A stretch of 64,000 nt of DNA, taken from contig CAKOKR010000001.1 of the NCBI GenBank assembly GCA_934095965.1, positions 2,047 through 66,046 on the forward strand. The letters are read 5' to 3'. A program made the translations under genes and the position numbers. The DNA comes from an uncultured Bacilli bacterium (GTDB taxonomy: Bacteria > Bacillota_I > Bacilli_A > RF39 > UBA660). This document shows positions 1 through 45,830 of this stretch, one piece after another (position 1 is the stretch's first letter; every line of letters begins with the position of its first letter). The notes beneath the pieces are model-generated. The model saw only the letters and a list, made by a program, of their open reading frames with translations, was not told the DNA's origin and made no database searches.

Positions 1-288
1 GAATTGTTTGATCAGCTATTTGGTAGTAGTAACATATATGATTTATTTATAAAAGATCCTGAGGCAATTAGAAAGTTTGAATTAGCGGACATGGAAATAC
101 AAGAATCATTTAATAAGATGGAGAAATATATTAAAAATGGTACAGATTTAGAAAAAGAAGCCATTAGAGTATTAAAAGAATTTATGGAAAATGATAAAGA
201 AACAAGTATTAAAGATTCAAACAAAAATATTGAAGAATTAAAAAATAGATTAGAAAAGTTAGTGGAAAAGAATAATAAAAATGAATAA
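1..288 (+). CDS. 3' end of an upstream ORF (hypothetical, coiled-coil or charged); the window starts inside it
   Basis: The open frame runs from nt 1 with no in-frame stop. The listed start at nt 4 is TTG, so this is probably not the true start. The sequence is Lys/Glu-rich. Confidence 0.3.
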   Translation, partial: ELFDQLFGSSNIYDLFIKDPEAIRKFELADMEIQESFNKMEKYIKNGTDLEKEAIRVLKEFMENDKETSIKDSNKNIEELKNRLEKLVEKNNKNE

Positions 289-392
289 TTTTTAGGTACG
301 TAATTAGCTGCTTAAAGTACCTAAAAACATATAAAATTGAATAAACACAAATAAACTGATATATACATAAGCCCTTTTAAATAAAGGGTTTT

Positions 393-968
393 ATGTATTT
401 TATAAATGTTGATAATACGGAACTCGATAATCTCCTGAAGAGAGCAGACCCAATTGAATATCACATCAAAGCATTTGAAAAACTCTTATCACTATTAAAT
501 AGCTGTGTTAATAAAATAATAATATCATTCCTTGATGAATATAAAAATGTTTTAAAAAATAAAAATATTTTACAATATAAAACATTAACAGAAAAAGACT
601 ATGAACAAATTGGAATTAACTTTAGTGCTATTGCTAAAAAATATAATATGACAGTTCAAACATGTTTTGAGGATAGAAACTTAACAGAATATGGCTTCAT
701 AAAAGAAGATTGCCTATCTCACAAACTTGCTTACTACTTAACGGGTAAAAAATATAAAAGTTGGAAGTCTCGTAAAGGAAGAAAATACAATTGTGTAGAA
801 ATGGTAGACATCGGTGCATACGACACTTGTAAACATTTCTGTAAATATTGTTATGCAAACTATGATGAAAACAAAGTAAACAATAATACATTAAATCACA
901 ACTCCAATTCATCATTAATAACAGGTACAATTACAGATAAATATACAATAAAGATAAGAAAAATTTGA
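393..968 (+). pseudogene. Truncated second copy of a DUF1848 family gene (C-terminal ~185 aa only)
   Basis: Residues IEYHIKAFEKLLSLL...CKHFCKYCYANYDE...KIRKI are ~90% identical to the C-terminal half of the 4102..4989 product. The first ~20 codons are unrelated. There is no N-terminal GRTDIIAFY region. Confidence 0.55.
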
Positions 969-1283
969 CAAAATTCAAGTTCAAATTGTTAGTGAAAATA
1001 AAAAAAATATACGTAAAAAAGGAGTTGATAATATGAAAGAAAAAGAAAAAAAGGATTTGATGATATAGACATAGAAAAACAATGGAATGATATGATTAAA
1101 GAAGTGCTAGAATTACTTGATCCAGCCATGGATGATATGCCTTCCGTTGCTTTAAATTGACAAACACCAAATGAATATTGAAAACAACAATAATAAAAGC
1201 ATAATTAATAAATCTAAAAAGATATATAAACTAGATTAAAGTCTCGGTACACCTGAGATTTTTTTCTACAAAAAATATCATCC

Positions 1284-1295
1284 CTATGTTATAAT
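1284..1295 (+). promoter_or_regulatory. Extended -10 promoter element (TGtTATAAT) upstream of the helicase gene
   Basis: tatgTTATAATat lies 20 nt upstream of the RBS and ATG at 1317. A hairpin plus T7 terminator lies just upstream at ~1240-1270. Confidence 0.4.
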
Positions 1296-1316
1296 ATACT
1301 AAAGTAGGTGTAACAT

Positions 1317-3581
1317 ATGAAAGAAGAATTTATAAAAAAGTTAAATAATAAAGAATATATTTCTAAGTATTTATATCTCAAAACCAATGAAGAAGATTCT
1401 AGTATATTACCATATAATTTTGATATAGATAAATATAATGAAGAAGTAATAAATAATGATTTAATCAAGTATCATGATTATTTTGATAACATGTATAAAG
1501 ACATTGACTCAAATATAAAACTTGATATAGATCAACAAAAAGCAATACTTACCGATGAAGAATATTCATTAATTATCGCCGGTGCAGGAACAGGCAAAAC
1601 CACAACCATGGCATCAAAAATAAAATATCTTGTTGACATAAAAAAAGTAAATCCCAGTGAAATACTAGCTATAAGTTTTACCAAAAAAGCTACCGAAGAA
1701 CTAGAAAAAAGAATAGTAATTGATTTTAACATACCCGCTAAAGTAACAACATTTCATTCTCTAGGTTTCATGTATATCAGAGAAATATTTAAAAATCACA
1801 AATGTTTTGTAGTTGACAATAACACCCGCAACAACATATTTTTAAAATACTTTAAAGAAGAAATATTTCCAAATAAAGAAACAGTTAAAGAGCTACTTTC
1901 GTTATTTAATTCAACTACTGTTAAAAAAATATGGCTATTCGGTGATTACTTTCAAAAAAACTATAATAAATATAATACATTTGATGAATACTTCATAAAT
2001 TACAAAAAAGATAAATTAAAAGAAATACCAGATTTAACAAAATGGTTACAAGAAAGAATAGATAAATCTATAAATAGTGAGGTAATATATACAATTAACA
2101 ATGAATTAGTTAAATCAAAAGGTGAAGCTATAATTGCAAATTTTTTGTTTAAAAATAATATTGATTATGTATATGAAAAAGTCTATGAAAAATTAATGCC
2201 TGATAATAAAACTTATAAACCTGATTTTACCCTTAATCTTGGCGGAGAACCAGTATATATTGAATACTTTGGCTTATCAACATACAAAAGTGATGAACTA
2301 AATAGGTATGAAAAAATAAAAAAACTAAAAGAAGAATACCACTATAAACATCATAATAAATTCATTAAAATAGACTATCAAAAAAATGAAGATTTAGAAA
2401 AAACACTAGCAAGTGAACTAACAAAAATGGGATTTACTTTAAAACCTAAAACAGATATAGAAATATACAACCAAATACTTGATAACAACGAAACATCCCA
2501 AATGTATCCATATCGTGATTTATTATATTCAGTTATTGATCAAATTAAATCATCAAATAAAAGAAAAAAATATATTGAAGAAGTGGATAACTATATCAAA
2601 AAAACAGTATCAATCGAAGAAAAAGAAATGTGTAAAAAACAATTTAAGTATATAAATGAATTTTATATCTATTATCAAAAAGAGTTATATGGAAGTGAAA
2701 CTTATGGATTTGATTTTGCTGACATGATATATTATGCTAACCTATATATAAATAATGTTGATAATAACACAGATTTAAATTTCAAATATATAATTATTGA
2801 TGAATATCAAGATATATCTGAAGATCGTTACATCTTAACAAAAAATGTTGCTAATAAAAATCACGCTAAAGTAGTTGCAGTAGGTGATGATTGGCAATCA
2901 ATATTTTCATTCACAGGTTCAAAGATTGAATACATATATAACTTTTTATCATATTTTCCAACTGCCAAAATATTAAAGATTGCAAAAGCATATCGAAATA
3001 GTAAAGAATTAATCAAGTATTCAAGTGACTTTGTCATGAAAAATGATGAACAAATTAAAAAGGTTTTAATATCTGATAAAGAAAATCCTAATCCAATAAA
3101 GTTTGTAATGTTTGATGATGGCGAAGAAGTATCAAAATTAAAAGAATTAATATTAGCAATTAACCAAAGAAATAAAAATAGTCACATTTTAATACTAGGC
3201 AGAACTAATAGAATAATTGATTCTTTATTTGATGATGCAACATTCATTGATGAGGTTGAAACAAAAATAAAATTCGCAGGTTACAACGATATTGACATTG
3301 ATGGTATGACTATTCATAAATCAAAAGGATTAACTAGTGATGAAGTAATTATAATTGGTCTAGATAATAATTTTCCTAAATCAAACTACGGAGACTTTTG
3401 GTTAAAAGAAATATTTAAAAATAAATGGTATCAAGAAAAAATAGCATTTGCTGAAGAACGTCGTTTATTTTATGTTGCACTAACCAGAACTAAAAACAAT
3501 GTCTATCTCTTAGTTAATAAAAATATATCTAAACGTAGTCCATTTATTAATGAAATTTACAACATTATATTGACAAAATGA
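1317..3581 (+). CDS. UvrD/PcrA-family superfamily-1 DNA helicase with an inserted PD-(D/E)xK-like nuclease module (helicase-IV-like architecture)
   Basis: Walker A IIAGAGTGKTTT. Walker B/DExx IIIDEYQD. C-terminal motif VI VALTRTKNNVYLL. An internal segment GEAIIANFLFKNNIDYVYE...KPDFTL...YIEYFG resembles restriction-endonuclease-fold modules. Confidence 0.8.
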   Translation: MKEEFIKKLNNKEYISKYLYLKTNEEDSSILPYNFDIDKYNEEVINNDLIKYHDYFDNMYKDIDSNIKLDIDQQKAILTDEEYSLIIAGAGTGKTTTMASKIKYLVDIKKVNPSEILAISFTKKATEELEKRIVIDFNIPAKVTTFHSLGFMYIREIFKNHKCFVVDNNTRNNIFLKYFKEEIFPNKETVKELLSLFNSTTVKKIWLFGDYFQKNYNKYNTFDEYFINYKKDKLKEIPDLTKWLQERIDKSINSEVIYTINNELVKSKGEAIIANFLFKNNIDYVYEKVYEKLMPDNKTYKPDFTLNLGGEPVYIEYFGLSTYKSDELNRYEKIKKLKEEYHYKHHNKFIKIDYQKNEDLEKTLASELTKMGFTLKPKTDIEIYNQILDNNETSQMYPYRDLLYSVIDQIKSSNKRKKYIEEVDNYIKKTVSIEEKEMCKKQFKYINEFYIYYQKELYGSETYGFDFADMIYYANLYINNVDNNTDLNFKYIIIDEYQDISEDRYILTKNVANKNHAKVVAVGDDWQSIFSFTGSKIEYIYNFLSYFPTAKILKIAKAYRNSKELIKYSSDFVMKNDEQIKKVLISDKENPNPIKFVMFDDGEEVSKLKELILAINQRNKNSHILILGRTNRIIDSLFDDATFIDEVETKIKFAGYNDIDIDGMTIHKSKGLTSDEVIIIGLDNNFPKSNYGDFWLKEIFKNKWYQEKIAFAEERRLFYVALTRTKNNVYLLVNKNISKRSPFINEIYNIILTK

Positions 3582-3619
3582 TAACATGTGTGTATTATAT
3601 TATCTAAAGAAGGAATAAT

Positions 3620-4102
3620 ATGAATATATTTGTAACATCAGACACACATTTTAATCATAAAAACATAATTAAATATTGCCATAGACCATATAAAGATGTC
3701 GAAGAAATGAACGAAGCAATAATTAGTAATTGGAATAACTCTGTAACAAATGATGACATTATTTATCATCTCGGAGACTTTGGCTTTGGAACTAAAGAAG
3801 AGTTAAAACAAATTTTTAATAGATTAAATGGTCAAAAATATTTAATAATGGGTAATCATGATAAAAAAGTAGGTAGAAATTATTATCTTGAACTAGGTTT
3901 TATTGATGTATATCGCAAGAAATGCCTACTTGATAATTATATTCTAACCCATGAACCAATAGAAGTAGAAAGTGATAAAATAAATCTATATGGTCACATT
4001 CATAATTCTGATATCGATCCTATCTTTGATGATCCAAATCACAAATGTATCTGCCTTGAACAAACTGATTATAAACCACTTTTACTAATGAGGAAAAAAT
4101 AA
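3620..4102 (+). CDS. Small calcineurin-like metallophosphoesterase
   Basis: Motifs SDTHFNH, LGDFGFG and MGNHD match the MPP superfamily signature (D-x-H, GD, GNH[DE]). Confidence 0.75.
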   Translation: MNIFVTSDTHFNHKNIIKYCHRPYKDVEEMNEAIISNWNNSVTNDDIIYHLGDFGFGTKEELKQIFNRLNGQKYLIMGNHDKKVGRNYYLELGFIDVYRKKCLLDNYILTHEPIEVESDKINLYGHIHNSDIDPIFDDPNHKCICLEQTDYKPLLLMRKK

Positions 4103-4989
4103 TGGTTTTATTTGTAAGTGGAAGAACAGATATCATAGCATTTTACACAAAATGGTTTTTAAATAGATTAGATGAAGGCTTCGTTGATGTAAGAAACCCA
4201 TTTAATCCTAATCTAGTAAGTAGAATCAATTTTTCTGATGTTGATTTAATTTTATTCTGCACTAAAAATCCAATTCCAATAGTAAACCACTTAGATAAAA
4301 TACCAAAACCATTTCTATTTCATGTAACAATAACTCCATACAAAAATGATATTGAACCATATGTCCCTTCAAAAACGAAAGTGATTGAAGCTGTCAAAGA
4401 AATATCAAAACAAATTGGTAAAGAAAACATAGTAATAAGGTATGACCCAATTTTCATAAGTGACAAATACACTATTGAATATCACATCAAGGCATTTGAA
4501 AAACTCTTATCACTATTAAATGGTTACGTTAATAAAATAATAATATCTTTTCTTGATGAATATAAAAATGTTTGCAAAAATAAAAATATTTTACGATATA
4601 AAACATTAACAGAAAAAGACTATGAACAAATTGGAACTAACTTTAGTGCCATAGCTAAAAAATATAACACGACAGTTCAAACCTGTTTTGAAGATAGAAA
4701 CTTAACAGAATATGGTTTCATAAAAGGAGAATGCTTATCACATGAACTTGCTTACTACTTAACAGGTAAAAAATATAAAAGTTGGAAATCACGTAAAGGT
4801 GATAAATGCAATTGTGTTGAAATGGTAGATATCGGAGCATACAACACCTGTAAACATTTCTGTAAATATTGTTATGCAAACTATGATGAAAAAAAGGTAA
4901 ATGAAAATTCATTAAAACATAACCCCAATTCATCACTAATAACAGGTACAATTACAGATAAAGATACAATAAAGATAAGAAAAATTTGA
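4102..4989 (+). CDS. DUF1848 family protein with a C-terminal Cys cluster
   Basis: The N-terminus GRTDIIAFYTKWFLNRL and the C-terminal CNCVEMVDIGAYNTCKHFCKYC Cys cluster are typical of DUF1848. Its ATG overlaps the upstream stop (ATGA). Confidence 0.7.
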   Translation: MVLFVSGRTDIIAFYTKWFLNRLDEGFVDVRNPFNPNLVSRINFSDVDLILFCTKNPIPIVNHLDKIPKPFLFHVTITPYKNDIEPYVPSKTKVIEAVKEISKQIGKENIVIRYDPIFISDKYTIEYHIKAFEKLLSLLNGYVNKIIISFLDEYKNVCKNKNILRYKTLTEKDYEQIGTNFSAIAKKYNTTVQTCFEDRNLTEYGFIKGECLSHELAYYLTGKKYKSWKSRKGDKCNCVEMVDIGAYNTCKHFCKYCYANYDEKKVNENSLKHNPNSSLITGTITDKDTIKIRKI

Positions 4990-5042
4990 CAAAATGATAA
5001 TAAAGTGATAGAATATACCCCAATACAAAGGGGTGTTTTTAA

Positions 5043-6725
5043 ATGAATAATCAAAAAATAGAAACAATAAAAAGTCTCTATTCTGGTGCAAAAGCATACA
5101 CTATGTTTATAGTAGAAGAACGTCAACATGATAATGCTAAGGTTGACTATATTTTAGAAGATAAATATTATAATTGTGCAAGGCTTGGATTTATTACCAA
5201 CATAATGCTTGCAATAAAAGAAGAATTAGTAGAAAAAGTATCATATCATAATTTTGAATCACTAGTTTTTAATAATGAACTAGAAAAATCAGTAAAATGT
5301 ATTGCAAGTAAAGTAAGTAATGGTTATAAAATAGATAACTATGTATTTGATACAATACCAAATTTAGTGGCCACTCTAAGAGATAAACTTGCACATGGAA
5401 ACTATATAATATGTAGTAATTACAAAGAAATAACAATAATTCTAGATGATAAAGGTACCACAATTAATATTGAAATAGACAAATTAGCAAAATTTGTTAC
5501 AAATGCAATGATAAGTTTTATAAAAAAACAAAATCCAAAAGAATTTGTTCGTAAAAACATTATGTTTAGCAAAATAAAAAATGGTGATAAGCCATTGTTA
5601 TCAAAATCAGAAGTAAGGTTTGTAAGTAAAAATGCAAAAAGAGTAACAATCAAGTTCAAAAGAAAAGATGGTAAAGATTTAACAGAAAAAGAAACAGAAA
5701 GATTAGAAGAATATTGTGACATTTTAAAAAAAGATAGTAGCAATGAAACTATTGAAAAAATAAAAAAAATAACAATGTATACATACGATTTTACATACGA
5801 AAGAAAACCAATTGCTAACATAAATTATGATTTAATAGCAGATGTATTAATGTCAAGTTACAAAAATGTTAAACTTGAACGCCAATTAATATGTATAGCA
5901 TTTTTAATTGAAAAAATGATTGATGATACGAATACTTTACAAGAAATAATGGCATCAATCAACAATCTAATTTTGCTTAAAGCAATTTATGAAAATAAAA
6001 GTGTTGACATGAATTATGTCTCAACAAAATTAGATGGTAAAGAAATATCCAACGGTATTATGGAATTAGCAAATGCAGCAATAACATTATTCCAAACATT
6101 ATTTTCATATGCAAATGATGATGTATTCAAAAATGATTTTGAGTATCAACAAACACAAAGTAATGGACTAGACTACGGGAAATTAGATTTATCAAATATA
6201 AAAGTATTAGTATATCCAACAGATAAAAGTCCAATTGATGTATATCTAGAGCAAAAGAAAAAAGCTGATAGAGAATATGCAAATATTCAAAAAAACATTG
6301 CTAAAGTGATTGAAAACAAAAATAATGCTATTAAAAATAACAATCAAAATGCAATTTCAAATATAAATCAAGTATTAAATACTTTAAAACAAACTGAACA
6401 AATAAAATTGCAAGATAAAATAAAATGTGATACAGAATATAATAACGTATGCACTTATGAACAAACAAATAAAAAACATCTAATTAATAGATCAATAATT
6501 AATGGAATAAGAAATTGTATTGCACACGGAAACTATCGAATCGTTCATGGAAAAACTGTAAGTGATGCAACATTAGTATTTGAAGATATACATAACAAAA
6601 AGTTAACATTCAAAGCAGTAGTAAATCCTATTGATTTTATAAATATGATTTATGAAAATGAATGGGTTGTAACTGAATTTTTAAATAATTTAACAACTCA
6701 AAACACATTAACTAGACAAAAATAG
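5043..6725 (+). CDS. Hypothetical protein with two HEPN-like Rx4H motifs (putative RNase of an Abi or defence type)
   Basis: RDKLAHGNY lies at about aa 113-121 and RNCIAHGNY at about aa 490-498. Both are R-x4-H followed by GNY. The RBS is AAAGGGGTG. Confidence 0.5.
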   Translation: MNNQKIETIKSLYSGAKAYTMFIVEERQHDNAKVDYILEDKYYNCARLGFITNIMLAIKEELVEKVSYHNFESLVFNNELEKSVKCIASKVSNGYKIDNYVFDTIPNLVATLRDKLAHGNYIICSNYKEITIILDDKGTTINIEIDKLAKFVTNAMISFIKKQNPKEFVRKNIMFSKIKNGDKPLLSKSEVRFVSKNAKRVTIKFKRKDGKDLTEKETERLEEYCDILKKDSSNETIEKIKKITMYTYDFTYERKPIANINYDLIADVLMSSYKNVKLERQLICIAFLIEKMIDDTNTLQEIMASINNLILLKAIYENKSVDMNYVSTKLDGKEISNGIMELANAAITLFQTLFSYANDDVFKNDFEYQQTQSNGLDYGKLDLSNIKVLVYPTDKSPIDVYLEQKKKADREYANIQKNIAKVIENKNNAIKNNNQNAISNINQVLNTLKQTEQIKLQDKIKCDTEYNNVCTYEQTNKKHLINRSIINGIRNCIAHGNYRIVHGKTVSDATLVFEDIHNKKLTFKAVVNPIDFINMIYENEWVVTEFLNNLTTQNTLTRQK

Positions 6726-6814
6726 TAACTATAGTTACCCGCGTATATACCTAGAAAAATAAGAAAATGTAATAGGTTAAAATAACTATTGCATTTTTTA
6801 TTTAAAAAAATAAC

Positions 6815-6843
6815 TTGTATATCAAACATACGTGTGCTATAAT
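6815..6843 (+). promoter_or_regulatory. Sigma-A-like promoter (TTGTAT - 17 nt - TATAAT, with TGc extended)
   Basis: Consensus spacing, upstream of the 6954 gene. Confidence 0.5.
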
Positions 6844-6953
6844 AGATGTATCAATTCAAAAAAGTTTTGGAATTGATAACTGTATGTTGATTAAGTATTC
6901 ATATTGAAAAAGGTACAAAACATTTAAAAATTTTGTTATCTTTTGGAGGTAAT

Positions 6954-7322
6954 ATGAAAACAGAAATAACAAAATACTTACATCAACATAAATCTACGAA
7001 TTTCTCTAGTCTTCTGTTTTTATATATTGATAAAAGTGGGCTAAAGGATTCAATGATTTACAAAAAAGCTGGCATCGATAGAAAATTATTTTCAAAAATT
7101 AGATGCAACGATTATATTCTAAACAAAAAAACTATTATAAGGTTATGCTTTGTTTTAAAATTATCACTAGATGAAGCAAATAAACTTTTAAATAGTGCAG
7201 GATATGCATTAAGTAAAAGTCAAGACTTTGATTTAATCATTCAATATTGTTTAGAAAAAAAAATATATGACTTGTATATCGTAAATGAAATGCTAGAAAC
7301 TTTTTTAAAAACTGTTCTTTAA
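6954..7322 (+). CDS. Hypothetical small protein (possible HTH-like)
   Basis: GGAGG RBS 6 nt upstream of the ATG at 6954. The long ORF listed from 6933 is less likely to be real. Confidence 0.4.
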   Translation: MKTEITKYLHQHKSTNFSSLLFLYIDKSGLKDSMIYKKAGIDRKLFSKIRCNDYILNKKTIIRLCFVLKLSLDEANKLLNSAGYALSKSQDFDLIIQYCLEKKIYDLYIVNEMLETFLKTVL

Positions 7323-7335
7323 CAGTATTTTTTTT
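7308..7335 (+). terminator. Rho-independent terminator
   Basis: aaACTGTTctttAACAGTattttttttt. Confidence 0.5.
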
Positions 7336-7449
7336 TGCAATTTTTCCCTAAGATATGCCAAAAACATGTCGCCAAAATTTGTCGCTTTTAAAGCGACCAC
7401 ATTACCCATCTTTTCTAGTATAATTGATTTATCGAATGGAGGAAATAAT

Positions 7450-7959
7450 ATGAAAACAAATATGCAAATGTTAAGAAATTTAATTAGAGAGGAGGAAGAA
7501 AATCTAGATTTAATAAGATTTAGTAGTCAAGATTATTTATTTAATAAAGTAAATGAAGAATTAAATGGTAAAGTCACAATTCTTGTCGATAACACAGAAA
7601 AAATGTTAGAAAAACTAAAGGAGGTAGAAGATTTAACAAATAAAATTAATTACCTTAAAAGAACTTTGTTCGAAAAAGAAAATGAACTAAGACTAGAAGA
7701 TGGAAGAACAGTGAAGGAAGCATCAGTAGAAAATAAATACAACTTAAAGTTAAAGTATTATTATGAAGCTCTTTTACGTAAAGAAAATAAAAAAATAAGA
7801 ATGACAGATTCTAAAAGTGCATACTTCTTAGAATATAAATTAAACGTTGATAGAAATGAAATTAAAGAAAAACTAAAGAAAATCAGTGAAGAAATAAGAA
7901 ATACAACTAATAAAATAATTAGATTAAATGGCGAATTTTTTGAAATAGATTTACCATAA
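7450..7959 (+). CDS. Hypothetical coiled-coil protein
   Basis: aatGGAGGaaataatATG. The upstream ORF extension lacks an RBS. Confidence 0.4.
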   Translation: MKTNMQMLRNLIREEEENLDLIRFSSQDYLFNKVNEELNGKVTILVDNTEKMLEKLKEVEDLTNKINYLKRTLFEKENELRLEDGRTVKEASVENKYNLKLKYYYEALLRKENKKIRMTDSKSAYFLEYKLNVDRNEIKEKLKKISEEIRNTTNKIIRLNGEFFEIDLP

Positions 7960-8140
7960 TGGTACCATAAAGTTATTGAATGGTTTAAATTAAGTAAAAC
8001 TTAAGCCAGTACTTTATAAAACAGATGATTACGTACTTCAAAATAAGAAGTCTAACCACCTCGTTACCTAAAGTTTTATAAAGTAGGTAAGTGCATCTCA
8101 ACTTGGGATGCACTACCAAATATTAGAAAGGAAGGTTATT

Positions 8141-8446
8141 ATGAATAAATATGTATATGAAACAGAAGATAAAATAAAAATGGGATTAGTATTAAATTTA
8201 GATAAAGTATACAAGTCTTTAAAAAATTTTAAAGATTGCTATAAAAGAATTTATAACAGAATGGATTATCGTAGCACCAAAAAGTATTATTACAAAGGTA
8301 AAATATATACGGAAGAGGAGTTGCTTGAAAACAATTTTGAAAAAGATGAAGAAGGTATATTCGGTTGCATGCCGATATACACAGAAGAAGAAATATTAAC
8401 AAAAATAAAAGATTATTTATACGAAGTATGGAATTTAATAGAATAG
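8141..8446 (+). CDS. Hypothetical protein
   Basis: RBS gaaAGGAAGGttattATG. Confidence 0.4.
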   Translation: MNKYVYETEDKIKMGLVLNLDKVYKSLKNFKDCYKRIYNRMDYRSTKKYYYKGKIYTEEELLENNFEKDEEGIFGCMPIYTEEEILTKIKDYLYEVWNLIE

Positions 8447-8457
8447 GAGGTAAAAAG

Positions 8458-9126
8458 ATGTCACGTAAAAGAGAAATATATAATTTAGAATATTATATAG
8501 AGGATGGAGAAACTCTAGAAGAATTAGCAGATAGAATTATCAAGGATATAAAGAAAAATTTTAAAACAAATAATCAAAAAGAAAAATATCCAACTGAAGA
8601 ATTAAAAACAATAACAAAAATAACATATTATGATAAATTAAAAGTAGATGCTGATGATCTAATTCAAGGATTGGTAGTGGAAGTTAATAATGAACCATTT
8701 ATTATTTTAGATATAAGCTATGGTTTAAGTATTAGCACATTAGATATGATAACAAATGAATTAAAAAATAATAAATCAAGAAACTTCACAATTTATGAAA
8801 TTAATAAAAATGATTTTCAATCTGATATAAAATTTGGAGAAATAAAAAAAGTTCAACTTTACCGTAAGGCTGAACTAGAAAATAAAATAAACGGAAAAAC
8901 ACTTTGTAAATCTGATATAATTGAATTTACAGATTACAATGACAAGAAATTTTACGTTGATTACATTAACAATGATATATATAAAAGAGAAAATCTCTAT
9001 AAAATAAATAAACATGGTAAAATAATAACAGTATTTGAAAGACATAAATTAAATAGTGTAAATATAAAAACATTTGACACACTAACATACAAGTTAACAA
9101 AAATAACAAAAAACTTAGAAATATAG
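8458..9126 (+). CDS. Hypothetical protein
   Basis: RBS ataGGAGGtaaaaagATG. There is a 12-nt gap after the previous gene. Confidence 0.4.
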   Translation: MSRKREIYNLEYYIEDGETLEELADRIIKDIKKNFKTNNQKEKYPTEELKTITKITYYDKLKVDADDLIQGLVVEVNNEPFIILDISYGLSISTLDMITNELKNNKSRNFTIYEINKNDFQSDIKFGEIKKVQLYRKAELENKINGKTLCKSDIIEFTDYNDKKFYVDYINNDIYKRENLYKINKHGKIITVFERHKLNSVNIKTFDTLTYKLTKITKNLEI

Positions 9127-9264
9127 TTTACATGTAAAGAATAAATGTACAGAAAAAATAGTAACAATAATCTTTCATAATTAAAACTTTACAAAGAAAT
9201 GAAAAAAGTAATAGTTCCAAATAATCATTTGTGGTACAATATAGATAAGAAAAGAGGTAAAAAT

Positions 9265-9621
9265 ATGGAAGTAAATGATTATTTGGTGACTAAAGACAGA
9301 GAAGACCTTTTGTCATCACTAAAAAAGGTAAACAGAATAATAATAAACAAGAAACTAAGAGAATTAGATTTGGAAAATCTTCAAGAATTAAAAAAGTATA
9401 TCTTAGAACACTTAAAGGACAGTATCAAAAATATAAAGGATAGATGGTTACTTAACGTTCATTTTGAAACACTTTTGACAAATGAAAACAAAACTTTGTC
9501 ACTTGATCCAAGTGATATTGAAAACTTTATAGTATTTCTTTATGAAGAAGATGGAGAAATAAAATATTATATGCCAACTGAAGTAAAAGATATAATAAAA
9601 AGGTCAATAAAAGTAAAATAG
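9265..9621 (+). CDS. Hypothetical protein
   Basis: RBS aaAGAGGtaaaaatATG. Confidence 0.35.
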   Translation: MEVNDYLVTKDREDLLSSLKKVNRIIINKKLRELDLENLQELKKYILEHLKDSIKNIKDRWLLNVHFETLLTNENKTLSLDPSDIENFIVFLYEEDGEIKYYMPTEVKDIIKRSIKVK

Positions 9622-9684
9622 TAATAATTTCTAGTGATTTTTATTTCTTTTAGTAGTATAATAAAAAGTAGAAATGAGGTAATT

Positions 9685-9843
9685 ATGGAAGAAAAAAATA
9701 AATTAGAAACTTGCAGTTGTGAAGAATGCAGTTGTGAAGAATGCAATTGCGAAAACTGTGATTGCGAAGAATGCGATTGCGAAGACTGTAAATGTCAAAG
9801 TTGTGATTGCGAAGAATGCAACTGTGAAGATTGCGATTGTTAA
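9685..9843 (+). CDS. Cys-rich acidic repeat peptide (52 aa, 18 Cys; eight 5-aa C-x-C-E-x repeats plus a terminal CDC)
   Basis: RBS aatGAGGTaattATG. The sequence is MEEKNKLETCSCEECSCEECNCENCDCEECDCEDCKCQSCDCEECNCEDCDC. Its own hairpin plus T-run terminator follows at 9851-9880. Confidence 0.5.
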   Translation: MEEKNKLETCSCEECSCEECNCENCDCEECDCEDCKCQSCDCEECNCEDCDC

Positions 9844-9850
9844 ATATGAA

Positions 9851-9880
9851 AGTTCTGTACTAAAATACGGAACTTTTTTA
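9851..9880 (+). terminator. Rho-independent terminator after the Cys-repeat peptide gene
   Basis: AGTTCTGTActaaaaTACGGAACTttttt. Confidence 0.5.
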
Positions 9881-9891
9881 ATGGAGGTAAA

Positions 9892-10092
9892 ATGGATAGT
9901 AGAACAGGTTATAAACTTAGATTATTAAGAACTAAATATGGATTAACTCAAAAAGATTTAGCAAACCTTTTAAACAAGAGTATTTCTCAAATATCAAATT
10001 ATGAACGCGGAAGAAGAAATTTAGGCAAAAATGAAATAGAAAAAATATGTAATCATCTTAAAATAAATAGAGAATTTTTTGATAATAATTGA
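9892..10092 (+). CDS. XRE-family HTH transcriptional regulator (short, 66 aa)
   Basis: GLTQKDLANLLNKSISQISNYERGRR is a classic HTH_3/Cro-C1 signature. RBS taatGGAGGtaaaATG. Confidence 0.75.
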   Translation: MDSRTGYKLRLLRTKYGLTQKDLANLLNKSISQISNYERGRRNLGKNEIEKICNHLKINREFFDNN

Positions 10093-10114
10093 AAAAATTA
10101 ACAGAAATAAATAA

Positions 10115-10150
10115 AATCAGTCTAGAAAAATCCAGACTGATTAATTATTA
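10115..10150. terminator. Bidirectional rho-independent terminator
   Basis: AATCAGTCTagaaaaatccAGACTGATT. A T-run lies on the plus side and an A-run upstream, so it also serves as a minus-strand T-run. Confidence 0.55.
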
Positions 10151-10213
10151 TCTTTTTCTATAATCAAAGTATTCCCAGATTACATAAATAAGAAAATTTA
10201 AAAAATCTAACAT
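10148..10213 (-). CDS. 21-aa hydrophobic micro-ORF (MLDFLNFLIYVIWEYFDYRKR), possible small toxin or leader peptide
   Basis: Perfect SD AAGGAGG 5 nt upstream of the ATG on the minus strand. The ORF ends at the bidirectional terminator. Confidence 0.3.
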   Translation of the reverse strand: MLDFLNFLIYVIWEYFDYRKR

Positions 10214-10334
10214 AATGCCTCCTTAATTATAGAGACCCTGATTAAATTATTATATATGATGTATCAATTTTTGTAAAGATAGCTAGACATAATTATCAAA
10301 ATATATTATGATATTCATATGAAAGGATGATAAT

Positions 10335-11219
10335 ATGAAAAGTAAAGTATATTTCATAAAAGAAATAACAAGTGAAAGTTTAATCAAAATTTATGAAAGT
10401 TTAAATCAAGAATTAAAAGGAAGAGTTGCAATAAAAATATCAACTGGTGAACCCGGAGGACATAATTTCTTAAATCCAAATTTAATAAAAGATTTAGTTA
10501 ACAAATTAAATGGAACAATAGTTGAATGTTGCACAGCATATGCTGGAAAAAGAGAACATCCATCTGATCACTGGCAAGCAATCAAAGACCATGGTTTTTA
10601 TGACATTGCTCCTTGCGATATCATGGATGAAGAAAAAGAGATAACTATTCCAATTAATGGTGGTAAACACTTAAATGGAATAAATTATGTTGGAAGTCAT
10701 ATTAAAAATTATGATTCCATGCTTATGTTGTCACATTTTAAAGGACATGTAATGGGTGGCTTTGGTGGAGCTTTAAAAAATATGTCAATCGGAGTATCAT
10801 CAAGAAATGGAAAAGCTTGGATTCACTCAGCTGGAAAAACAACGGTTCCCGAAGAATGTTGGAAACTTGAAACAAAACAAGATGATTTTCTTGAAAGTAT
10901 GGCAGAAGCAGATAAATCAGTAGTAGATTATTTCAAACCAGAAAATATGTTATATATTAATGTTGCAAATAATATTTCAATTGATTGTGATTGTGATTCA
11001 AATCCGAAAGAACCAGAAATTGCAGATATAGGTATATTTGCATCAATAGATCCAGTTGCACTAGATAAATGTTGTTATGATACAATAATGAGTCTAATAG
11101 AAGTTGGAGCAAATTCGCTAAAAGAAAGAATGCTTGATAGACATGCAATTCACACAGTTGAAGAAGCAGAAAAGTTAGGATTAGGAACAACTGACTATGA
11201 ATTAATAAATATTGATTAG
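10335..11219 (+). CDS. DUF362 domain protein
   Basis: MKSKVYF...AIKISTGEPGG...ECCTAYAG... matches the family pattern. RBS GAAAGGATGataatATG. Confidence 0.6.
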   Translation: MKSKVYFIKEITSESLIKIYESLNQELKGRVAIKISTGEPGGHNFLNPNLIKDLVNKLNGTIVECCTAYAGKREHPSDHWQAIKDHGFYDIAPCDIMDEEKEITIPINGGKHLNGINYVGSHIKNYDSMLMLSHFKGHVMGGFGGALKNMSIGVSSRNGKAWIHSAGKTTVPEECWKLETKQDDFLESMAEADKSVVDYFKPENMLYINVANNISIDCDCDSNPKEPEIADIGIFASIDPVALDKCCYDTIMSLIEVGANSLKERMLDRHAIHTVEEAEKLGLGTTDYELINID

Positions 11220-11229
11220 GAGGCACAAC

Positions 11230-11715
11230 ATGGAAAAACTTGAAGAAATAGTAAAAATATTAAAAGAAAAAAATAAATATGTTTCAACAATGGAATCTTG
11301 TACTGGAGGTGGACTTGTTAATGCAATAACAAACATCCCCGGAGCAAGTGAAATTTTAAAATTTAGTGCAGTAACTTATTCAAATGAATTTAAAATTAAA
11401 ATGGGAGTACCAAAAGAAACCATTGATACTTATTCTGTATATAGTATGGAAACTGCAATCGATATGTCAAAGAAAATATCTGAATTTACGAATTCAAATT
11501 ATGGTATTGGTATAACAGGCAAATTAAATAGAGCAGATATTAATAATTTATCTGGTGATGATAATATGGTATATTTTAGTATTTATAATATGGATACAAA
11601 TACCAATTATAATGACTATTTAAGAGTTTCAAAATCATCAAGAAAAGAAAATAAAGACGAAGTAATAACAAAAATTGTTAATAACTTTTATGAAATATTA
11701 AAAAAAGAAGATTAA
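11230..11715 (+). CDS. CinA C-terminal-domain (PncC-like nicotinamide-nucleotide amidase family) protein
   Basis: ESCTGGGLVNAITNIPGAS...VTYSN signature. RBS ttAGGAGGcacaacATG. Confidence 0.7.
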   Translation: MEKLEEIVKILKEKNKYVSTMESCTGGGLVNAITNIPGASEILKFSAVTYSNEFKIKMGVPKETIDTYSVYSMETAIDMSKKISEFTNSNYGIGITGKLNRADINNLSGDDNMVYFSIYNMDTNTNYNDYLRVSKSSRKENKDEVITKIVNNFYEILKKED

Positions 11716-12653
11716 AGTAAATCTCCTTGATAGATATTTCTTTTTGCCATTTCTTGGTCAATTCCATTTAAAACCATAAACTTTTTTATGAGCCATTCTG
11801 GTGCCACAAGTTCATTTAGTTCTGGGTCTCCGGTAATTCTCATAACAACGACATCAGGATTAAGCAATCTTAATTGATCGCATACAATATCAATGTACTC
11901 CTCTCTAGTTAGAATATGAAATTTGTTATTTTCATAATAACTAGCTAACGGAGTATTTTTTGCTATATAAAGCATATGAATTTTAATTCCATCTATTTTT
12001 AAATCATTAACAAATTTTATTGTATTTATCATATCTTCTTTTGTTTCATATGGAAGTCCATTAATAATGTGAGCAACTACGAATATATTTCTTTCATGTA
12101 GTTTTTCAACAGCTTCTTTAAATATTTCTTTATCATGACCTCGATTTATAAATTTTAATGTATGATTGTTACTACTTTGAAGTCCAAGCTCTACAATTAG
12201 AAAAGTTTTTTTGTTTAATTCATCTAAATAATCCAGCCATTCATCACTTAAACAATCAGGTCTAGTAGCAATATCAATTCCAATAACTTTAGGTAAAAGA
12301 AGTAATTTATCTATATACATTTTAACTAAATTTTTATCATTATAAGTATTCGTACCAGATTGAAAATAAGGAATGTATAAACTATCTGGCCATTTTTGTT
12401 CCATAATTTTTCGTCCCTTTTCAAATTGTTCTAAAATATCTAAGGTATTATCACTGATACCAGCAATAGACTTATTTGAACAATATATGCATCCACCATT
12501 ATATTGATTAGGACATGTACTATTTATATCTAAAGGAACTTTAAAAACTTTTTGACCAAATTTCTTTTTAAAAAAGTAATTTAAAGTATGATATCTTTTA
12601 TTGTCTAAAGTGTTTTTAAACATAGTTTTCACCTCGTATATATATTTTAGCAC
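11712..12653 (-). CDS. TIGR01212-family radical SAM protein
   Basis: CPNQYNGGCIYCSN Cys motif. The length and the remaining sequence match the YhcC/TIGR01212 family. Confidence 0.7.
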   Translation of the reverse strand: MLKYIYEVKTMFKNTLDNKRYHTLNYFFKKKFGQKVFKVPLDINSTCPNQYNGGCIYCSNKSIAGISDNTLDILEQFEKGRKIMEQKWPDSLYIPYFQSGTNTYNDKNLVKMYIDKLLLLPKVIGIDIATRPDCLSDEWLDYLDELNKKTFLIVELGLQSSNNHTLKFINRGHDKEIFKEAVEKLHERNIFVVAHIINGLPYETKEDMINTIKFVNDLKIDGIKIHMLYIAKNTPLASYYENNKFHILTREEYIDIVCDQLRLLNPDVVVMRITGDPELNELVAPEWLIKKFMVLNGIDQEMAKRNIYQGDLL

Positions 12654-26309: not shown

Positions 26310-27291
26310 AAAAGTTATTTACTAAATCATTAAATGGAACATAATCATCAAGTAATTTAAAATCTATCAAAAAGTCTTCCAAATTAGTAAATAATTTTTC
26401 ACTTATATACGGATTACTAAGCCAACAATCATATTCCTTATATCTATCAATCATTTCTTTTAAATCATCTACTTTTGTATCTGGAAATAAACTAATAATA
26501 TCTTTACTTACAATTAAAGAATTATTATCTAATGTATACTTAATACCTTTATTAATTGCATTAGTAAACTTCTTTATAATATCTTTATTATTTTCTATAT
26601 AACTTTTTCTAGCATAAAAAGCAGTATAAGGAACTTCACCAGACATTTTACCAACTGATGCTACAACTTTACCATAATCATTTTTTTGAAGTAATGTTGC
26701 GTTTGGTTCAAACAAATTAACAAAATCACCAACACCACCTATAAAAGAACCAGATAAAGCAGAAAACTCAACACTATAATTAACATTAATTTTATTTATA
26801 TCAATATTTTCATTTTTTAATGCATTTAAGAAATTTAATGCAGGCATTCCTGTACTTCTTCCCACCAATATTTCTTTTCCATACAAATCAGTTAATTTAA
26901 AATCTTTATCTTTATCTCTTGCAACAATAAATTGTCCATCTCTCTTAGTTAATCCTGCAAAAAGTTGCAAGTAGTCACCTTCATTTTCCTTATAGACATA
27001 TATCGCAGATTCAGCCCCAGCAAATCCAATTTCAACATCATTTGATAATACCGCAGCACTGACTTTATCAGCTCCTGGTGTTAACACAAGTTCTAAATCA
27101 ATACCTTCTTCTTTAAAATATCCTTTTTCAATTGCAACATACAAAGGACTATAAAAAGAACTATGAGTAACTTCAGCAAGTCTAATTTTAACTAAGTTAC
27201 TATCATCTTTTTTCTTAAAACCAAATACTAAAAAGGTAACTCCGATAAATATAGTTAAGCAAATAATACCTATAAAAATTCTTTTTTTCAA
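26302..27291 (-). CDS. ABC transporter substrate-binding protein (NMT1/THI5-SsuA-like) with an N-terminal signal anchor
   Basis: Signal or TM region MKKRIFIGIICLTIFIGVTFLVF. NMT1-like periplasmic-binding fold features. Heads the 3-gene operon. Confidence 0.65.
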   Translation of the reverse strand: MKKRIFIGIICLTIFIGVTFLVFGFKKKDDSNLVKIRLAEVTHSSFYSPLYVAIEKGYFKEEGIDLELVLTPGADKVSAAVLSNDVEIGFAGAESAIYVYKENEGDYLQLFAGLTKRDGQFIVARDKDKDFKLTDLYGKEILVGRSTGMPALNFLNALKNENIDINKINVNYSVEFSALSGSFIGGVGDFVNLFEPNATLLQKNDYGKVVASVGKMSGEVPYTAFYARKSYIENNKDIIKKFTNAINKGIKYTLDNNSLIVSKDIISLFPDTKVDDLKEMIDRYKEYDCWLSNPYISEKLFTNLEDFLIDFKLLDDYVPFNDLVNNFYE

Positions 27292-27355
27292 AATATATTC
27301 CTCCCTCTAAGGTAATATATGTATACTATTACATTTTGTTAATTTAGTATATTGA
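27174..27355. repeat. Copy A of a ~180-bp duplicated segment (SBP gene 5' end plus RBS plus promoter region)
   Basis: About 75-80% identical to 28405..28585. Confidence 0.6.
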
Positions 27356-28209: not shown

Positions 28210-28404
28210 TTAGTTTTAAAAGTTTTGCTAAATAAGCAAGACTTTTTTTGTATTTATGTAGAATTCTACATAATTATATTATAAAAAAGTCATCCAAAAA
28301 TAATTGTTACATTTCAGTCGAGCAACTAAAAAATAAGGTGGTTTCAGTAATTATTATTTATAATATTTAAATTAAATTCAATAAGACCACAATTTTAGTG
28401 TAGC

Positions 28405-28585
28405 ATCAGCAAGTCTAATTATAACTAAATTGTTATCATTATTTTTATTAAAATGAAATAATAAAAAATAACTACGTAAATGAGGTTAAGCAAATAATAC
28501 CTATAAAAATTCTTTTCTTCAAAATATATTCCTCCATCTAAGGTAATATGGATAAATTATTACATTTCATTAACATGATAAAAGA
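28405..28585. repeat. Copy B (decayed) of the SBP 5'/promoter segment. The start is mutated to TTG, with a stop after 16 codons.
   Basis: The minus-strand reading gives TTG AAG AAA AGA ATT TTT ATA GGT ATT ATT TGC TTA ACC ... TAG, compared with MKKRIFIGIICLT in the intact gene. Confidence 0.55.
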
Positions 28586-38790: not shown

Positions 38791-39588
38791 ATGTCAAATA
38801 TAATAAATAAGATTAGAAACCTATTATTAAATCGTAACACTGTTACGATTTTAGGTGTACTTGCAGGTGTTATTGCCCTGTGGATTGCCTATAGCATTAC
38901 TTTAGATAGAGCAGTAAAACCGCAAAAGGTACCTGTTGCTAATAAAGTTTTAACAGCAGGTACAGTTATTACTAAAGATGATATTGAATATGTTGAAGTA
39001 AATGGTGAAGCACTAAGAAAAGCAAGTGTTGTAACATCATCTAGTCAATTAATAGGTTATTATGTTAAAAATGATACATCTATAGCTATCGGAGAAATGT
39101 TTTACAAAGCTCAAGTAATTACAAAAGATAAATTAATTGAAAGAGATTTGGAAAGAGTTCCAGAAAACTATAAGATGTATTGGTTAAAAGCTAATAATAA
39201 AACTACATATGCTAATTCAATATATCCAGGAGATAAAATAGATTTATGGTTACTTACTAAAGTTGATGGTAAATGGATTTATGAAGAATTTATTAAAAAT
39301 ATTGAAGTACTTAGTGTTAAAGATGACAAAGGACAAAATGTTTTTGATGTAACTAGTGGCAGAGAACCTGCATGGTTATCATTTGCAGTTAATACTGAAA
39401 TGTACACATATTTAAAAAAGGTTGAATACTTAGCAAATATGACTATATATCCAGTACCAGTTAATAAAAATAATCAAGATGAAGAAGCAAAAACAGAAAT
39501 AAGTAATCAAGAACTTGTAAAAATAATTGATTCTTTAGCAAGAAAGAATCCTGAAGAACAAAGTGTAGAAGAAAATAATAATGAATAA
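38791..39588 (+). CDS. CpaB/RcpC-like Flp pilus assembly protein, paralogue 2
   Basis: About 45% identical to 38021..38788 (PQKVPVANKVLTAGTVITKDDIEYVEV ... VTSGREPAWLSFAVNTEMYTYL). Confidence 0.6.
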   Translation: MSNIINKIRNLLLNRNTVTILGVLAGVIALWIAYSITLDRAVKPQKVPVANKVLTAGTVITKDDIEYVEVNGEALRKASVVTSSSQLIGYYVKNDTSIAIGEMFYKAQVITKDKLIERDLERVPENYKMYWLKANNKTTYANSIYPGDKIDLWLLTKVDGKWIYEEFIKNIEVLSVKDDKGQNVFDVTSGREPAWLSFAVNTEMYTYLKKVEYLANMTIYPVPVNKNNQDEEAKTEISNQELVKIIDSLARKNPEEQSVEENNNE

Positions 39589-45093: not shown

Positions 45094-45444
45094 ATGGAAT
45101 TTTGTTACAAAAGTGCAACAATATGGCAAATAATTGGTAAAGTAATATTTATAATAAAAATAGTAGTACCAATATTAATTATTGTTCTAGCATCAATTGA
45201 CTTAGGTAAAGCAACAGTATCAAGTGATGATAAAGCTGTATCAAAAGCTGCTAAAACATTATTAAGAAGAATTGTAACTGGTATCATTATTTTCTTTATT
45301 CCATTATTAATTAAAGTATTATTTAATATGGTAGCAGGATTTAATGATGAATTAAAAAAAGATTATGAAAATTGTGTTGTTTGTTTAACAGATCCTTATA
45401 ATGGTTGTGATACATCATATAAAGGTGAAATATTTACAAAGTAA
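45094..45444 (+). CDS. Small 2-TM protein with a Cys-containing C-terminal tail, paralogue A
   Basis: KVIFIIKIVVPILIIVLASIDLGKATVSSDDKAVSKAAKTLL...IIIFFIPLLI...CVVCLTDPYNGCDT. Confidence 0.45.
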   Translation: MEFCYKSATIWQIIGKVIFIIKIVVPILIIVLASIDLGKATVSSDDKAVSKAAKTLLRRIVTGIIIFFIPLLIKVLFNMVAGFNDELKKDYENCVVCLTDPYNGCDTSYKGEIFTK

Positions 45445-45515: not shown

Positions 45516-45830
45516 ATGACTTTTTGTACTGATGCACGTGATATTTTCTATACTATAGGAATGTTTCTACTAGTATTTAAAATTGTGATTCCTATTTTAT
45601 TAATTATATTTGGTATGGTTGATTTAGGAAAAGCAGTTATTGCCAGTGATGATAAAGCTGTATCAAAAGCAGCAAAATCACTATTAAATCGTGTTATTGC
45701 TGGTATATGTATCTTCTTCGTTCCACTAATCGTAAGTATTGTATTTAAGATGGTAGGTTCATTTGGAGAAGTTAAAGATCAATTTGATGTTTGTGCTAAC
45801 TGTATTGCTAGTCCAACAACAAAATGTTAG
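45516..45830 (+). CDS. Small 2-TM protein with a Cys-containing C-terminal tail, paralogue B
   Basis: About 45% identical to paralogue A (LGKAVIASDDKAVSKAAKSLL). RBS GGGAGGAG 8 nt before the ATG at 45516. The longer ORF from 45489 lacks an RBS. Confidence 0.45.
   Translation: MTFCTDARDIFYTIGMFLLVFKIVIPILLIIFGMVDLGKAVIASDDKAVSKAAKSLLNRVIAGICIFFVPLIVSIVFKMVGSFGEVKDQFDVCANCIASPTTKC

Follow-up and report, generated by a model that had tools for sequence, protein, structure and literature searches.

A diverged direct repeat of half a DUF1848 gene at a mosaic defence island of a gut Bacilli genome

The window analysed here is a stretch of 64,000 nucleotides from an uncultured Bacilli bacterium (contig CAKOKR010000001.1 of assembly GCA_934095965.1), and near its left end the 3' half of a DUF1848 gene is present twice, as an imperfect direct repeat. 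The host is an uncultured gut bacterium, similar to Clostridium sp. CAG:609, with a G+C content of 27%. We consider it likely that the left copy (copy 1) is an orphan gene half at the end of a decayed integrative mobilizable element (IME), and that recombination between haplotypes joined it to a resident block composed of a helicase, a metallophosphoesterase (MPP), an intact DUF1848 gene containing the right copy (copy 2), and a gene with HEPN-like motifs. A preliminary description of this stretch had recognized a recombination scar and attributed it to a helicase-MPP cassette swapped in at a resident DUF1848 gene. The scar is confirmed, since the copies are alleles of two lineages and the window is mosaic; the direction of the swap is not, because other haplotypes carry the same block without an orphan and copy 1 is the foreign part.

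We compared the window with 130 fetched loci (labelled with L-numbers), all of them metagenome contigs or contigs of metagenome-assembled genomes (MAGs). A species-level scan covered one genome per species (80 loci from gut 'Bacilli'/RF39-like MAGs), and further contigs of the same species at this locus were recovered through exact-protein look-ups. Locus L003 belongs to Clostridium sp. CAG:609 itself. The open reading frames (ORFs) of the window were scanned for domains, and the profile searches used Pfam, PADLOC, NCBIfam and Rfam.

Two copies of one gene half

The repeat spans nucleotides 453-975 and 4474-4996 of the window, at an offset of exactly 4021 nt and with no indels, and the copies match at 474 of 523 positions (90.6% identity, 9.4% difference). 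Random pairs of 523-nt segments of the window average 31% identity and reach at most 41% (2000 draws). Outside the repeat, to the left of 453/4474 as well as to the right of 975/4996, identity drops sharply to background. In both copies the repeat ends 7 nt beyond the TGA, and they share the terminal sequence ...AAGATAAGAAAAATTTGACAAAAT, also written ...TTTGACAAAAT. The longest perfectly identical runs measure 44 and 41 nt, and 42 codons differ between the copies, 24 synonymously and 18 non-synonymously. Self-comparison of the window and the alignment of the copies therefore uphold the repeat of about 90% identity with a common end that had been placed at ~455-985 and ~4483-5005; of these coordinates, those at which copy 1 ends and copy 2 begins are off by about 10 nt.

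Copy 2 is the 3' half, plus 7 nt, of an intact gene for a protein of 295 aa (4102-4989, forward strand, like all window features below), which matches positions 2-262 of the 262-position DUF1848 profile (Pfam PF08902, 5.2e-88). A full-length match including the C-terminal CX3CX2C cysteine cluster is the feature that defines membership, and this gene belongs to the family. Copy 1 runs from codon ~124 to the stop plus 7 nt (448-975; the match begins at nt 453 against copy 2 and at nt 448 against its closest alleles) and lies in an ORF of 191 aa (393-968) that matches profile positions 125-262 only (1.6e-33). The first 20 codons of this ORF derive from an element arm, J, and an attachment (att) core, both treated below, and a terminator lies directly upstream of its start. 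The earlier view of copy 1 as an orphan C-terminal fragment with 20 unrelated leading codons, and of copy 2 as half of an intact gene, thus holds. Copy 1 is a fragment of a DUF1848 gene and not a member of the family, and the ORF at 393-968 is probably not a functional gene; annotators should avoid naming it a DUF1848 gene. All six coding changes specific to copy 1 are non-synonymous, including a Cys to Tyr change in KCNCVEM. Copy 1 is a decaying pseudogene that probably forms the host-side flank (B') of the attR of the element.

As the preliminary description had it, and as ORF and Pfam matches confirm, the copies enclose a UvrD-type helicase (1317-3581), the MPP (3620-4102) and the 5' half of DUF1848. 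The arrangement recurs at 99.9-100% identity in at least four other samples (L001, L002, L083, L084), and because it was assembled there independently it is no isolated accident of assembly. Chimeric joining of contigs from two strains at shared DUF1848 sequence would fit the metagenomic origin of the material and the fact that L001, L002 and L084 end within 260 nt of the window start, a sign of graph branching nearby. Such a join would collapse the copies, not space them 4 kb apart; both copies are spanned in those samples by different pipelines, and the joint of orphan and helicase is also found in a second haplotype from further samples. We give this explanation almost no credence.

The copies are alleles of two lineages

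The 3' halves of DUF1848 at this locus fall into three types: r (copy 1, L003, L094 and both orphans of L097), c (copy 2 and L085), and a third represented by L093. Members of the r type are 96.6-99.6% identical to one another, and the identity matrix places copy 1 at 96.6-99.6% to the other r-type alleles and at 90.6% to copy 2. Its match to the 3' half of the full gene of L003 (10368-10894) is 97.2%. Copy 2 groups with L085 (95.6% for the c-type pair), apart from copy 1. In a three-way comparison, copy 1 agrees with L003 at 40 informative sites, copy 2 agrees with L003 at 9, and the two copies agree with each other at 7. Because the copies are r-type and c-type population alleles, the 9.4% difference is explained: it is allelic divergence between lineages and no gauge of the age of a duplication. 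The inference that 10% divergence argues against a very recent tandem duplication is in line with this result, the figure being equal to the divergence of two population alleles.

These distances also bear on an older duplication in place, in which the 3' half of DUF1848 was copied next to itself and the copies then diverged as paralogs. The direct orientation, the exact offset, the lack of indels and the common reading frame would all suit such an event. However, each copy has closer relatives in other strains (about 97-99.6% and 95.6%) than in its partner (90.6%), and the sequence joined to copy 1 is an att core with an arm known from unrelated loci. In the species-level scan, L003 is the one locus out of 80 that carries a further DUF1848 fragment or a helicase next to an MPP (the helicase matches of L061 and L065 are remote, several kb away), and two full-length DUF1848 genes, the arrangement that would have pointed to ancient paralogy, are not seen. 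Duplication in place is therefore highly improbable.

Haplotypes of the defence island

This locus is a defence island, hypervariable and strongly mosaic, with recG as its left border and DUF1848 and its HEPN-like neighbour as its right border. Defence systems are clustered here (Wadjet, type I restriction-modification (R-M), Dcm/NOV_C, DpnII/SIR2, AbiEi/AbiEii, Cas9-Cas1-Cas2 and Fic), their content varies between strains, and the flanks are conserved; the constant right flank consists of the gene for a 560-aa HEPN-like protein (HEPN560), five small genes, DUF362, CinA and a radical SAM gene. In haplotype A the order is Wadjet-helicase-MPP-DUF1848, and in haplotype B (L086) DpnII, SIR2, a 913-aa helicase and a 307-aa gene precede helicase-MPP-DUF1848. 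Haplotypes C and F have helicase, MPP and a 5' fragment of DUF1848, then a kinase-AbiE-237aa cassette and a full DUF1848 gene, with Cas9-Cas1-Cas2 and a CRISPR array added in F. The window is haplotype D. In haplotype E, HTH (helix-turn-helix), Dcm, NOV_C and a 231-aa gene precede an orphan 3' half and there is no intact gene, and haplotypes G, H and I consist of the helicase, a Fic cassette and an orphan 3' half. The helicase of haplotype G is preceded by the same IME end, orphan and S region (the sequence between orphan and helicase) as in the window.

The helicase-MPP-DUF1848-HEPN order without an orphan is found in L085-L092, an orphan directly before the HEPN-like gene in L093, and an orphan 5' fragment together with a full gene in L003 and L112. 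In L003 the helicase and MPP are followed by the first ~123 codons of DUF1848, with a nonsense mutation, then by 3.4 kb of other genes (kinase-like ATPase, AbiEi, AbiEii and a 237-aa gene), the full DUF1848 gene and the 560-aa gene. Window 1260-4470 is 95.2% identical to the corresponding block of L003, and the match stops exactly where copy 2 begins.

In the commonest haplotype (L112 3954-12270; L094/L095 1300-9900), the full DUF1848 gene is directly preceded by a type II CRISPR-Cas locus. This locus comprises Cas9, Cas1, Cas2, a 285-aa gene and ~43 repeats of 36 nt, of which the last, a degenerate one, is ~140 nt away from the start codon of DUF1848.

The window is a mosaic

From ~2500 to at least 12000, the window is 97.6-100% identical to haplotypes A and B, and the same range holds for the 3' end of DUF1848 and the sequence downstream of it. 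Over 4750-12000 it matches L085 and L086 (A/B) at 97.6-100% and L003, L093, L094 and L097 at only 66-96%; the whole DUF1848 gene is 95.2% identical to its A/B counterpart at the DNA level. Window 251-1250, on the other hand, is 96-100% identical to L097 (haplotype G), and informative sites in the helicase switch from mostly G-like to mostly B-like at 2432-2498. These patterns suggest that the window is a recombinant, whose left part (the IME end, copy 1, S and the first half of the helicase) would come from a G-type chromosome of the r lineage and whose remainder would come from the c lineage with its ordinary block. Since that block occurs without the orphan in A and B, and the window is identical to them there, resident and incoming sequence change places relative to the preliminary description: the helicase-MPP-DUF1848 block is the ordinary resident arrangement, and copy 1 is the import, carrying the allele of a sister lineage.

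The joint between copy 1 and the helicase

All haplotypes can be aligned from nt 1260 onwards, the start of the stretch that holds the promoter region and the helicase gene (1260-3581), and the helicase is common to every haplotype that has one. Just upstream, window 1097-1259 holds a remnant of a 307-aa gene (its last ~20 codons and terminator) that stands whole before the helicase in haplotype B: residues 288-307 of the protein match window 1098-1157 by tblastn, and the S region at 1097-1320 is 95% identical to L086 6996-7219, the part at 1260-1320 being the common helicase promoter. Between copy 1 and this remnant lie 121 nt (976-1096) with an illegitimate joint, 975/976, at their left edge. 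This segment has no match in the 130 fetched loci outside the D/G haplotype, except for 67 nt upstream of the helicase of L113, and tblastx of S and the left flank against 82 loci returned low-complexity noise only.

The connection of orphan and helicase thus holds at least one illegitimate joint (975/976), leading from an E-kind to a B-kind haplotype. Possibly a B-type segment entered an E-type chromosome, or else the helicase gained the IME and a 530-nt tail on its upstream side; both routes lead to one product. The history that we favour begins with an IME end (type I restriction genes, the 302-aa gene, J and the core) that would have come to abut a DUF1848 3' half broken at codon ~124. In an older event, illegitimate or unequal recombination would have joined the orphan and its 7 extra nt to the region upstream of the helicase, the partners being a chromosome with the orphan directly before the HEPN-like gene (as L093) and one with 307aa-helicase-MPP-DUF1848-HEPN (as L086). 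This joining probably took place in the r lineage (haplotype G), before the exchange within the helicase that made the window. In the lineage of the window itself, homologous recombination at about nt 2450, in mid-helicase, would then have combined a G-like left with an A/B-like right, as the informative sites indicate.

The cassette model of the preliminary description can be restated in these terms: an L093-like chromosome received a segment consisting of the end of the 307-aa gene, the helicase, the MPP and DUF1848, through homology in or downstream of DUF1848/HEPN at one end and an illegitimate joint 7 nt past the stop codon of the remnant at the other, either by homology-facilitated illegitimate recombination or by Campbell-type integration of a ~4-kb circle. 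Its precursor haplotype exists (L093), the length of the repeat is exactly that of the remnant plus 7 nt, and part of the 307-aa gene that stands before the helicase in haplotype B survives in the S region. The alleles speak against it as a history of the window, because copy 1 is uniformly r-type while copy 2 and 7 kb downstream of it are c-type; a single crossover into an r-type recipient leaves r-type sequence downstream, and a c-type recipient gives a c-type left copy. For this reason, Campbell integration of a 4-kb helicase-MPP-DUF1848 circle was rejected for the lineage of the window. Moreover, the left 2.4 kb, including half of the helicase, are G-like, and helicase-MPP-DUF1848-HEPN is the common resident arrangement, with nothing of a special cassette. 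We regard the model as unlikely, with some chance of being right; it may describe the first joint of orphan, S and helicase in the G lineage, where its product would be the same as that of unequal recombination.

The end of a probable fossil IME

Window 1-445 is probably the cargo end and attR arm of a fossil IME. The element that used DUF1848 as a junction thus lies to the left of copy 1, outside the coordinates of the preliminary description. Nucleotides 1-288 are the 3' end of a 302-aa gene, the last cargo gene after a type I R-M system: in L083, which continues the window to the left at 99.98% identity, an N6_Mtase+Methylase_S protein precedes the 302-aa gene. Next comes J (289-433, ~150 nt), the element-side arm (P arm) of attR, which holds TAGGTACGT at 293 in an inverted repeat and a terminator hairpin at 369-391. 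J is ~60-65% identical along its whole length to the sequence preceding the L093 orphan, and it closely resembles the arm at the cargo end of an IME that L120 carries elsewhere in the chromosome, at an unrelated site, where the homolog of window 289-433 is followed by CTTGAAGAGAGC and then by an unrelated host gene. The att core, CCTGAAGAGAGC, occupies 434-445 and is an 11/12-mer common to all orphan junctions; a filler AG (446-447) separates it from the DUF1848 sequence. A supposed homology of J to the sequence upstream of the core in L013-L015 was set aside, the alignment being unconvincing.

The anatomy of the element is seen in L121 and L122, which carry a small-RNA-like gene next to recG, the core, two copies of TAGGTACAC, Fic, AAA_21, a 434-aa tyrosine integrase and a Mob_Pre relaxase, then an AAA_25 protein, a repressor-like HTH protein, GmrSD and a type I R-M system. 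The integrase carries an arm-binding domain, and integrase and relaxase are intact in both. L125 and L126 show the same gene order from recG to J, core, orphan and helicase and so continue the G/D haplotype leftwards, and L125 and L103 show the full element. In the haplotype of the window both mobility genes are damaged: the integrase aligns only over residues 155-434 of its 434-aa relative (the first 154 are absent), and only residues 1-98 and 185-220 of Mob_Pre align.

The core stands at the junction of element and host in L121, L122, L118, L014 and L120, and other genomes have it as the 5' arm of the hairpin that terminates the small-RNA-like gene. This terminator is unoccupied in L125 (19117) and in L014 (9731, minus strand) and occupied in L121, L122 and L118, as expected of a canonical attachment site, and its stem shows compensatory changes; no attB of this kind was found for DUF1848 among 148 DUF1848 proteins and the six relevant JGI hits. 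A module of attL type is seen in other haplotypes, after the orphan 5' fragment of DUF1848. At the canonical site, the only Rfam matches at E <= 1 were two eukaryotic ones due to chance (L121 stretch). The small-RNA-like gene itself is ~100 nt long (L125 19030-19150, plus strand; L014 9715-9835, minus; L121/L122 17775-17890, minus), with a TTGACA-17-TAnnnT promoter, three hairpins and a conserved AACCAAAACCCC; in L013 and L014 it lies ~270 nt upstream of DUF1848 and is divergently transcribed.

The IME family is widespread in gut Bacilli MAGs (for example L121 8536-17750, and L125 1590-16990, which is the left continuation of the window). It carries cargo at both ends, Fic and AAA_21 at one and R-M, GmrSD or McrBC at the other, and its AAA_25 protein has 162 relatives at E <= 1e-30. 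The TAGGT motif, rare in these loci, occurs beside integrase genes in two viral contigs, and in two viral contigs the TAGGTACAC pair, too, comes shortly after tyrosine integrase genes. The idea that each cassette boundary bears the core or the TAGGTACAC motif, in the manner of attC in integrons, was dropped, both being confined to IME ends. With its core CCCTGAAG..., its TAGGTACAC arm repeats and its small-RNA-like target gene, the family looks previously undescribed.

A junction hotspot at codon 124 of DUF1848

Every orphan found, in four contexts, breaks at gene nt 369-375: the 3' fragments all begin at nt 373-375, and the 5' fragment stops at nt 369. Codon ~124 of DUF1848 is therefore a true junction hotspot, in agreement with the earlier proposal of an integration or recombination hotspot at DUF1848. 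All orphan 3' fragments (window, L093, L097b, L109) have the same 11/12-mer before them, in the form (C)CTGAAGAGAGC followed by AG(A/C)CCC, and this 11/12-mer also follows the orphan 5' fragment in L003 and L110-L113. In the L003-type context, the 12-mer comes directly after the 5' fragment, as the 5' arm of a terminator hairpin, with TAGGTACACTTTTAGGTACAC ~65 nt beyond it. The arm before the orphan of the Fic cassette is unrelated to J, yet it abuts the same 11-mer. The junction site in DUF1848 is GACAAATACCCAATTGAATATC, and its ACCC-AAT-TGAA resembles the invariant part of the core, ACCC-CC-TGAA.

The core is thus present on both sides of the DUF1848 split, with 11-12 nt, fillers AC and AG, and a duplicated ACC, while exchange by a tyrosine recombinase at a pseudo-site should leave only a common overlap of 6-8 nt. 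A lost target allele, integration of the coupling-sequence type, or two successive events are possible sources of these junctions. The 12-mer was also considered as a target-site duplication or as part of a native in-frame allele reading YHLKRADP, and both were rejected: a search with a synthetic chimeric protein, 148 DUF1848 proteins and a degenerate scan of JGI metagenomes yielded neither such an allele nor an empty J-core-P' site. It is doubtful, but conceivable, that codon ~124 is a genuine secondary attachment site at which integration leaves 11-12 duplicated nt of the element core at either junction, together with fillers of 2 nt and a target duplication of 3 nt; tyrosine recombinases are not known to produce such a pattern. 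If it were true, DUF1848 halves at cassette ends would serve as portable homology for gaining and losing defence modules, including the 4-kb helicase-MPP block.

A constant break point beside a recombinase core also invites the thought of programmed switching, with the orphan 3' halves as silent donors that vary the C-terminal half of DUF1848, as silent pilin copies and hsdS half-genes do, or with helicase and MPP toggled as a 4-kb circle. The orphans are frequent (P0123 is indexed in 35 blocks and P0127 in 7 contigs), two of them keep an in-frame ORF that starts with ATG, and the copies share identical runs of up to 44 and 41 nt. Yet the private changes of copy 1 are non-synonymous throughout and remove a conserved Cys, the L097b orphan has an 18-nt deletion with an in-frame stop just upstream, and the 3' types are ordinary population alleles that occur in full-length genes as well. 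The repeats are direct rather than inverted, so exchange between them would delete and not switch, and the only recombinase nearby is truncated. Switching of this kind is very unlikely.

Observations that weigh against the proposed history

Several results do not sit easily with an IME-end orphan joined by haplotype recombination to a resident block. No matching attL was found in the D/G haplotype, where the Fic-side end near recG (L125) lacks both the core and the TAGGTACAC module; the element thus has a boundary on a single side, and its designation as an IME rests on gene order and the attR arm. The att core is found in no intact DUF1848 gene (148 DUF1848 proteins and six relevant JGI hits), so simple integrase-mediated insertion into DUF1848 fails to predict the junctions. 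The 130 fetched loci supplied no source for window 976-1096. The helicase shows several short alternating tracts instead of one clean crossover, and some of the mosaicism could be assembly chimerism, all loci being metagenome or MAG contigs; against this last concern, the D arrangement was assembled five times.

The resident block and its neighbours

The helicase (754 aa) is UvrD/helicase IV-like by Pfam, PADLOC and NCBIfam. It has an insertion of ~110 aa (residues ~250-360) that matches the PADLOC candidate family PDC-S68. The MPP (160 aa) matches Metallophos and Metallophos_2, and its stop codon overlaps the start codon of DUF1848. In haplotypes G, H and I another cassette cuts the MPP after ~18 codons. 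The helicase is retained in haplotypes in which MPP and DUF1848 are destroyed, and so the three genes are not an obligate trio.

In PADLOC, the helicase matches the GajB and RTasHel profiles and DUF1848 matches RTasDUF1848. No GajA or reverse transcriptase is encoded among the ORFs of window 1-9000, and for want of either partner the enclosed cassette does not qualify as one of the known helicase defence systems (Gabija, UG25/UG35). DUF1848 has been linked to UG25 reverse transcriptases and a UvrD helicase to UG35 reverse transcriptases, as separate systems (PMC9226505); in the literature on DUF1848 we found only the UG25 link and nothing on loci of the present kind.

To the right of DUF1848, a promoter-like site (4986-5014) has its -35 hexamer inside the tail of the repeat, and the 560-aa protein (5043-6725) follows as the constant neighbour. 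It contains two Rx4H (HEPN-like) motifs, RDKLAHGNY and RNCIAHGNY, and its homologs give a weak match to PF18736 (pEK499_p136 HEPN). The gene adjoins DUF1848 in every haplotype and in other species, and in several species its homolog lies within ~1 kb of DUF1848. The protein may be a hypervariable effector paired with DUF1848. Its centre is 55-79% identical between lineages, with zero indels, and its flanks are 92-98% identical.

Farther along the window, a 253-aa gene downstream of the island (8365-9126) has a 237-aa paralog at 34% identity in the kinase-AbiE cassette (L003 9163-9876), and neither protein matches any family. The window contains three other direct repeats, at 27167-27342 and 28400-28573 (84% identity), at 38156-38647 and 38926-39417 (67%), and at 45197-45334 and 45619-45756 (74%). 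The second pair lies within adjacent ORFs (38021-38788 and 38791-39588) that may be paralogs.

Comparison with known systems

Each class of mechanism invoked here is already known, whether the decay of an IME, illegitimate joining or the homologous shuffling of haplotypes. The repeat is a pseudogene scar that calls for no new mechanism, informative but fairly ordinary, and no function of its own was found for it. Its sole likely effect would be to allow RecA-mediated deletion of the segment of helicase, MPP and 5' DUF1848 (4021 bp), which would restore an L093-like haplotype. Specialists may find interest in the IME family, its small-RNA-like target and the odd junction. More generally, the locus offers a base-pair view of how a defence island is rebuilt, in which fossil elements leave junctions and gene halves behind and strains shuffle modules at the pieces they share, and it presents DUF1848-HEPN560 as a conserved gene pair with defence genes accumulating alongside.

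IMEs and genomic islands that insert at the 3' ends of tRNA, tmRNA and small-RNA genes by means of a tyrosine integrase are well known (streptococcal IMEs, SGI1-type islands and PICI-like satellites). The present family resembles them in its integrase with an arm-binding domain, its Mob_Pre relaxase, its AAA_25 replication-type ATPase, its HTH protein and its defence cargo at both ends, and also in the short core repeated at the element ends; in other genomes this core is the terminator of the small-RNA-like gene, whose 3' end is replaced by the element. Unlike those elements, the one in the haplotype of the window is a fossil, and its host flank is half a protein-coding gene that lacks the core.

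A second parallel is the element e14 in icd of Escherichia coli, which brings a replacement 3' end for the gene and leaves the original 3' end as an orphan copy. Both cases have two diverged direct copies of the 3' part of a gene, one intact and the other an orphan beside an att site. The order differs: with e14 the intact gene is upstream, the orphan downstream and the element between them, whereas here the orphan is upstream and the element lies to the left of the repeat pair. A scan of the segment between the copies (helicase, MPP and the 5' half of DUF1848) with Pfam, PADLOC and NCBIfam found no recombinase domain.

The joint at 975/976, without homology, with a 121-nt filler and with long homology on the opposite side, recalls homology-facilitated illegitimate recombination in naturally transformable bacteria, as an analogy only. 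The locus also resembles defence islands and hotspots whose cassettes are exchanged as modules between strains, in which one locus with a constant flank (here the right one) holds varying modules, with the helicase and the 3' half of DUF1848 as the crossover points. From these the locus shows no essential difference, and its particular feature is a cassette boundary that lies inside a gene at a fixed codon.

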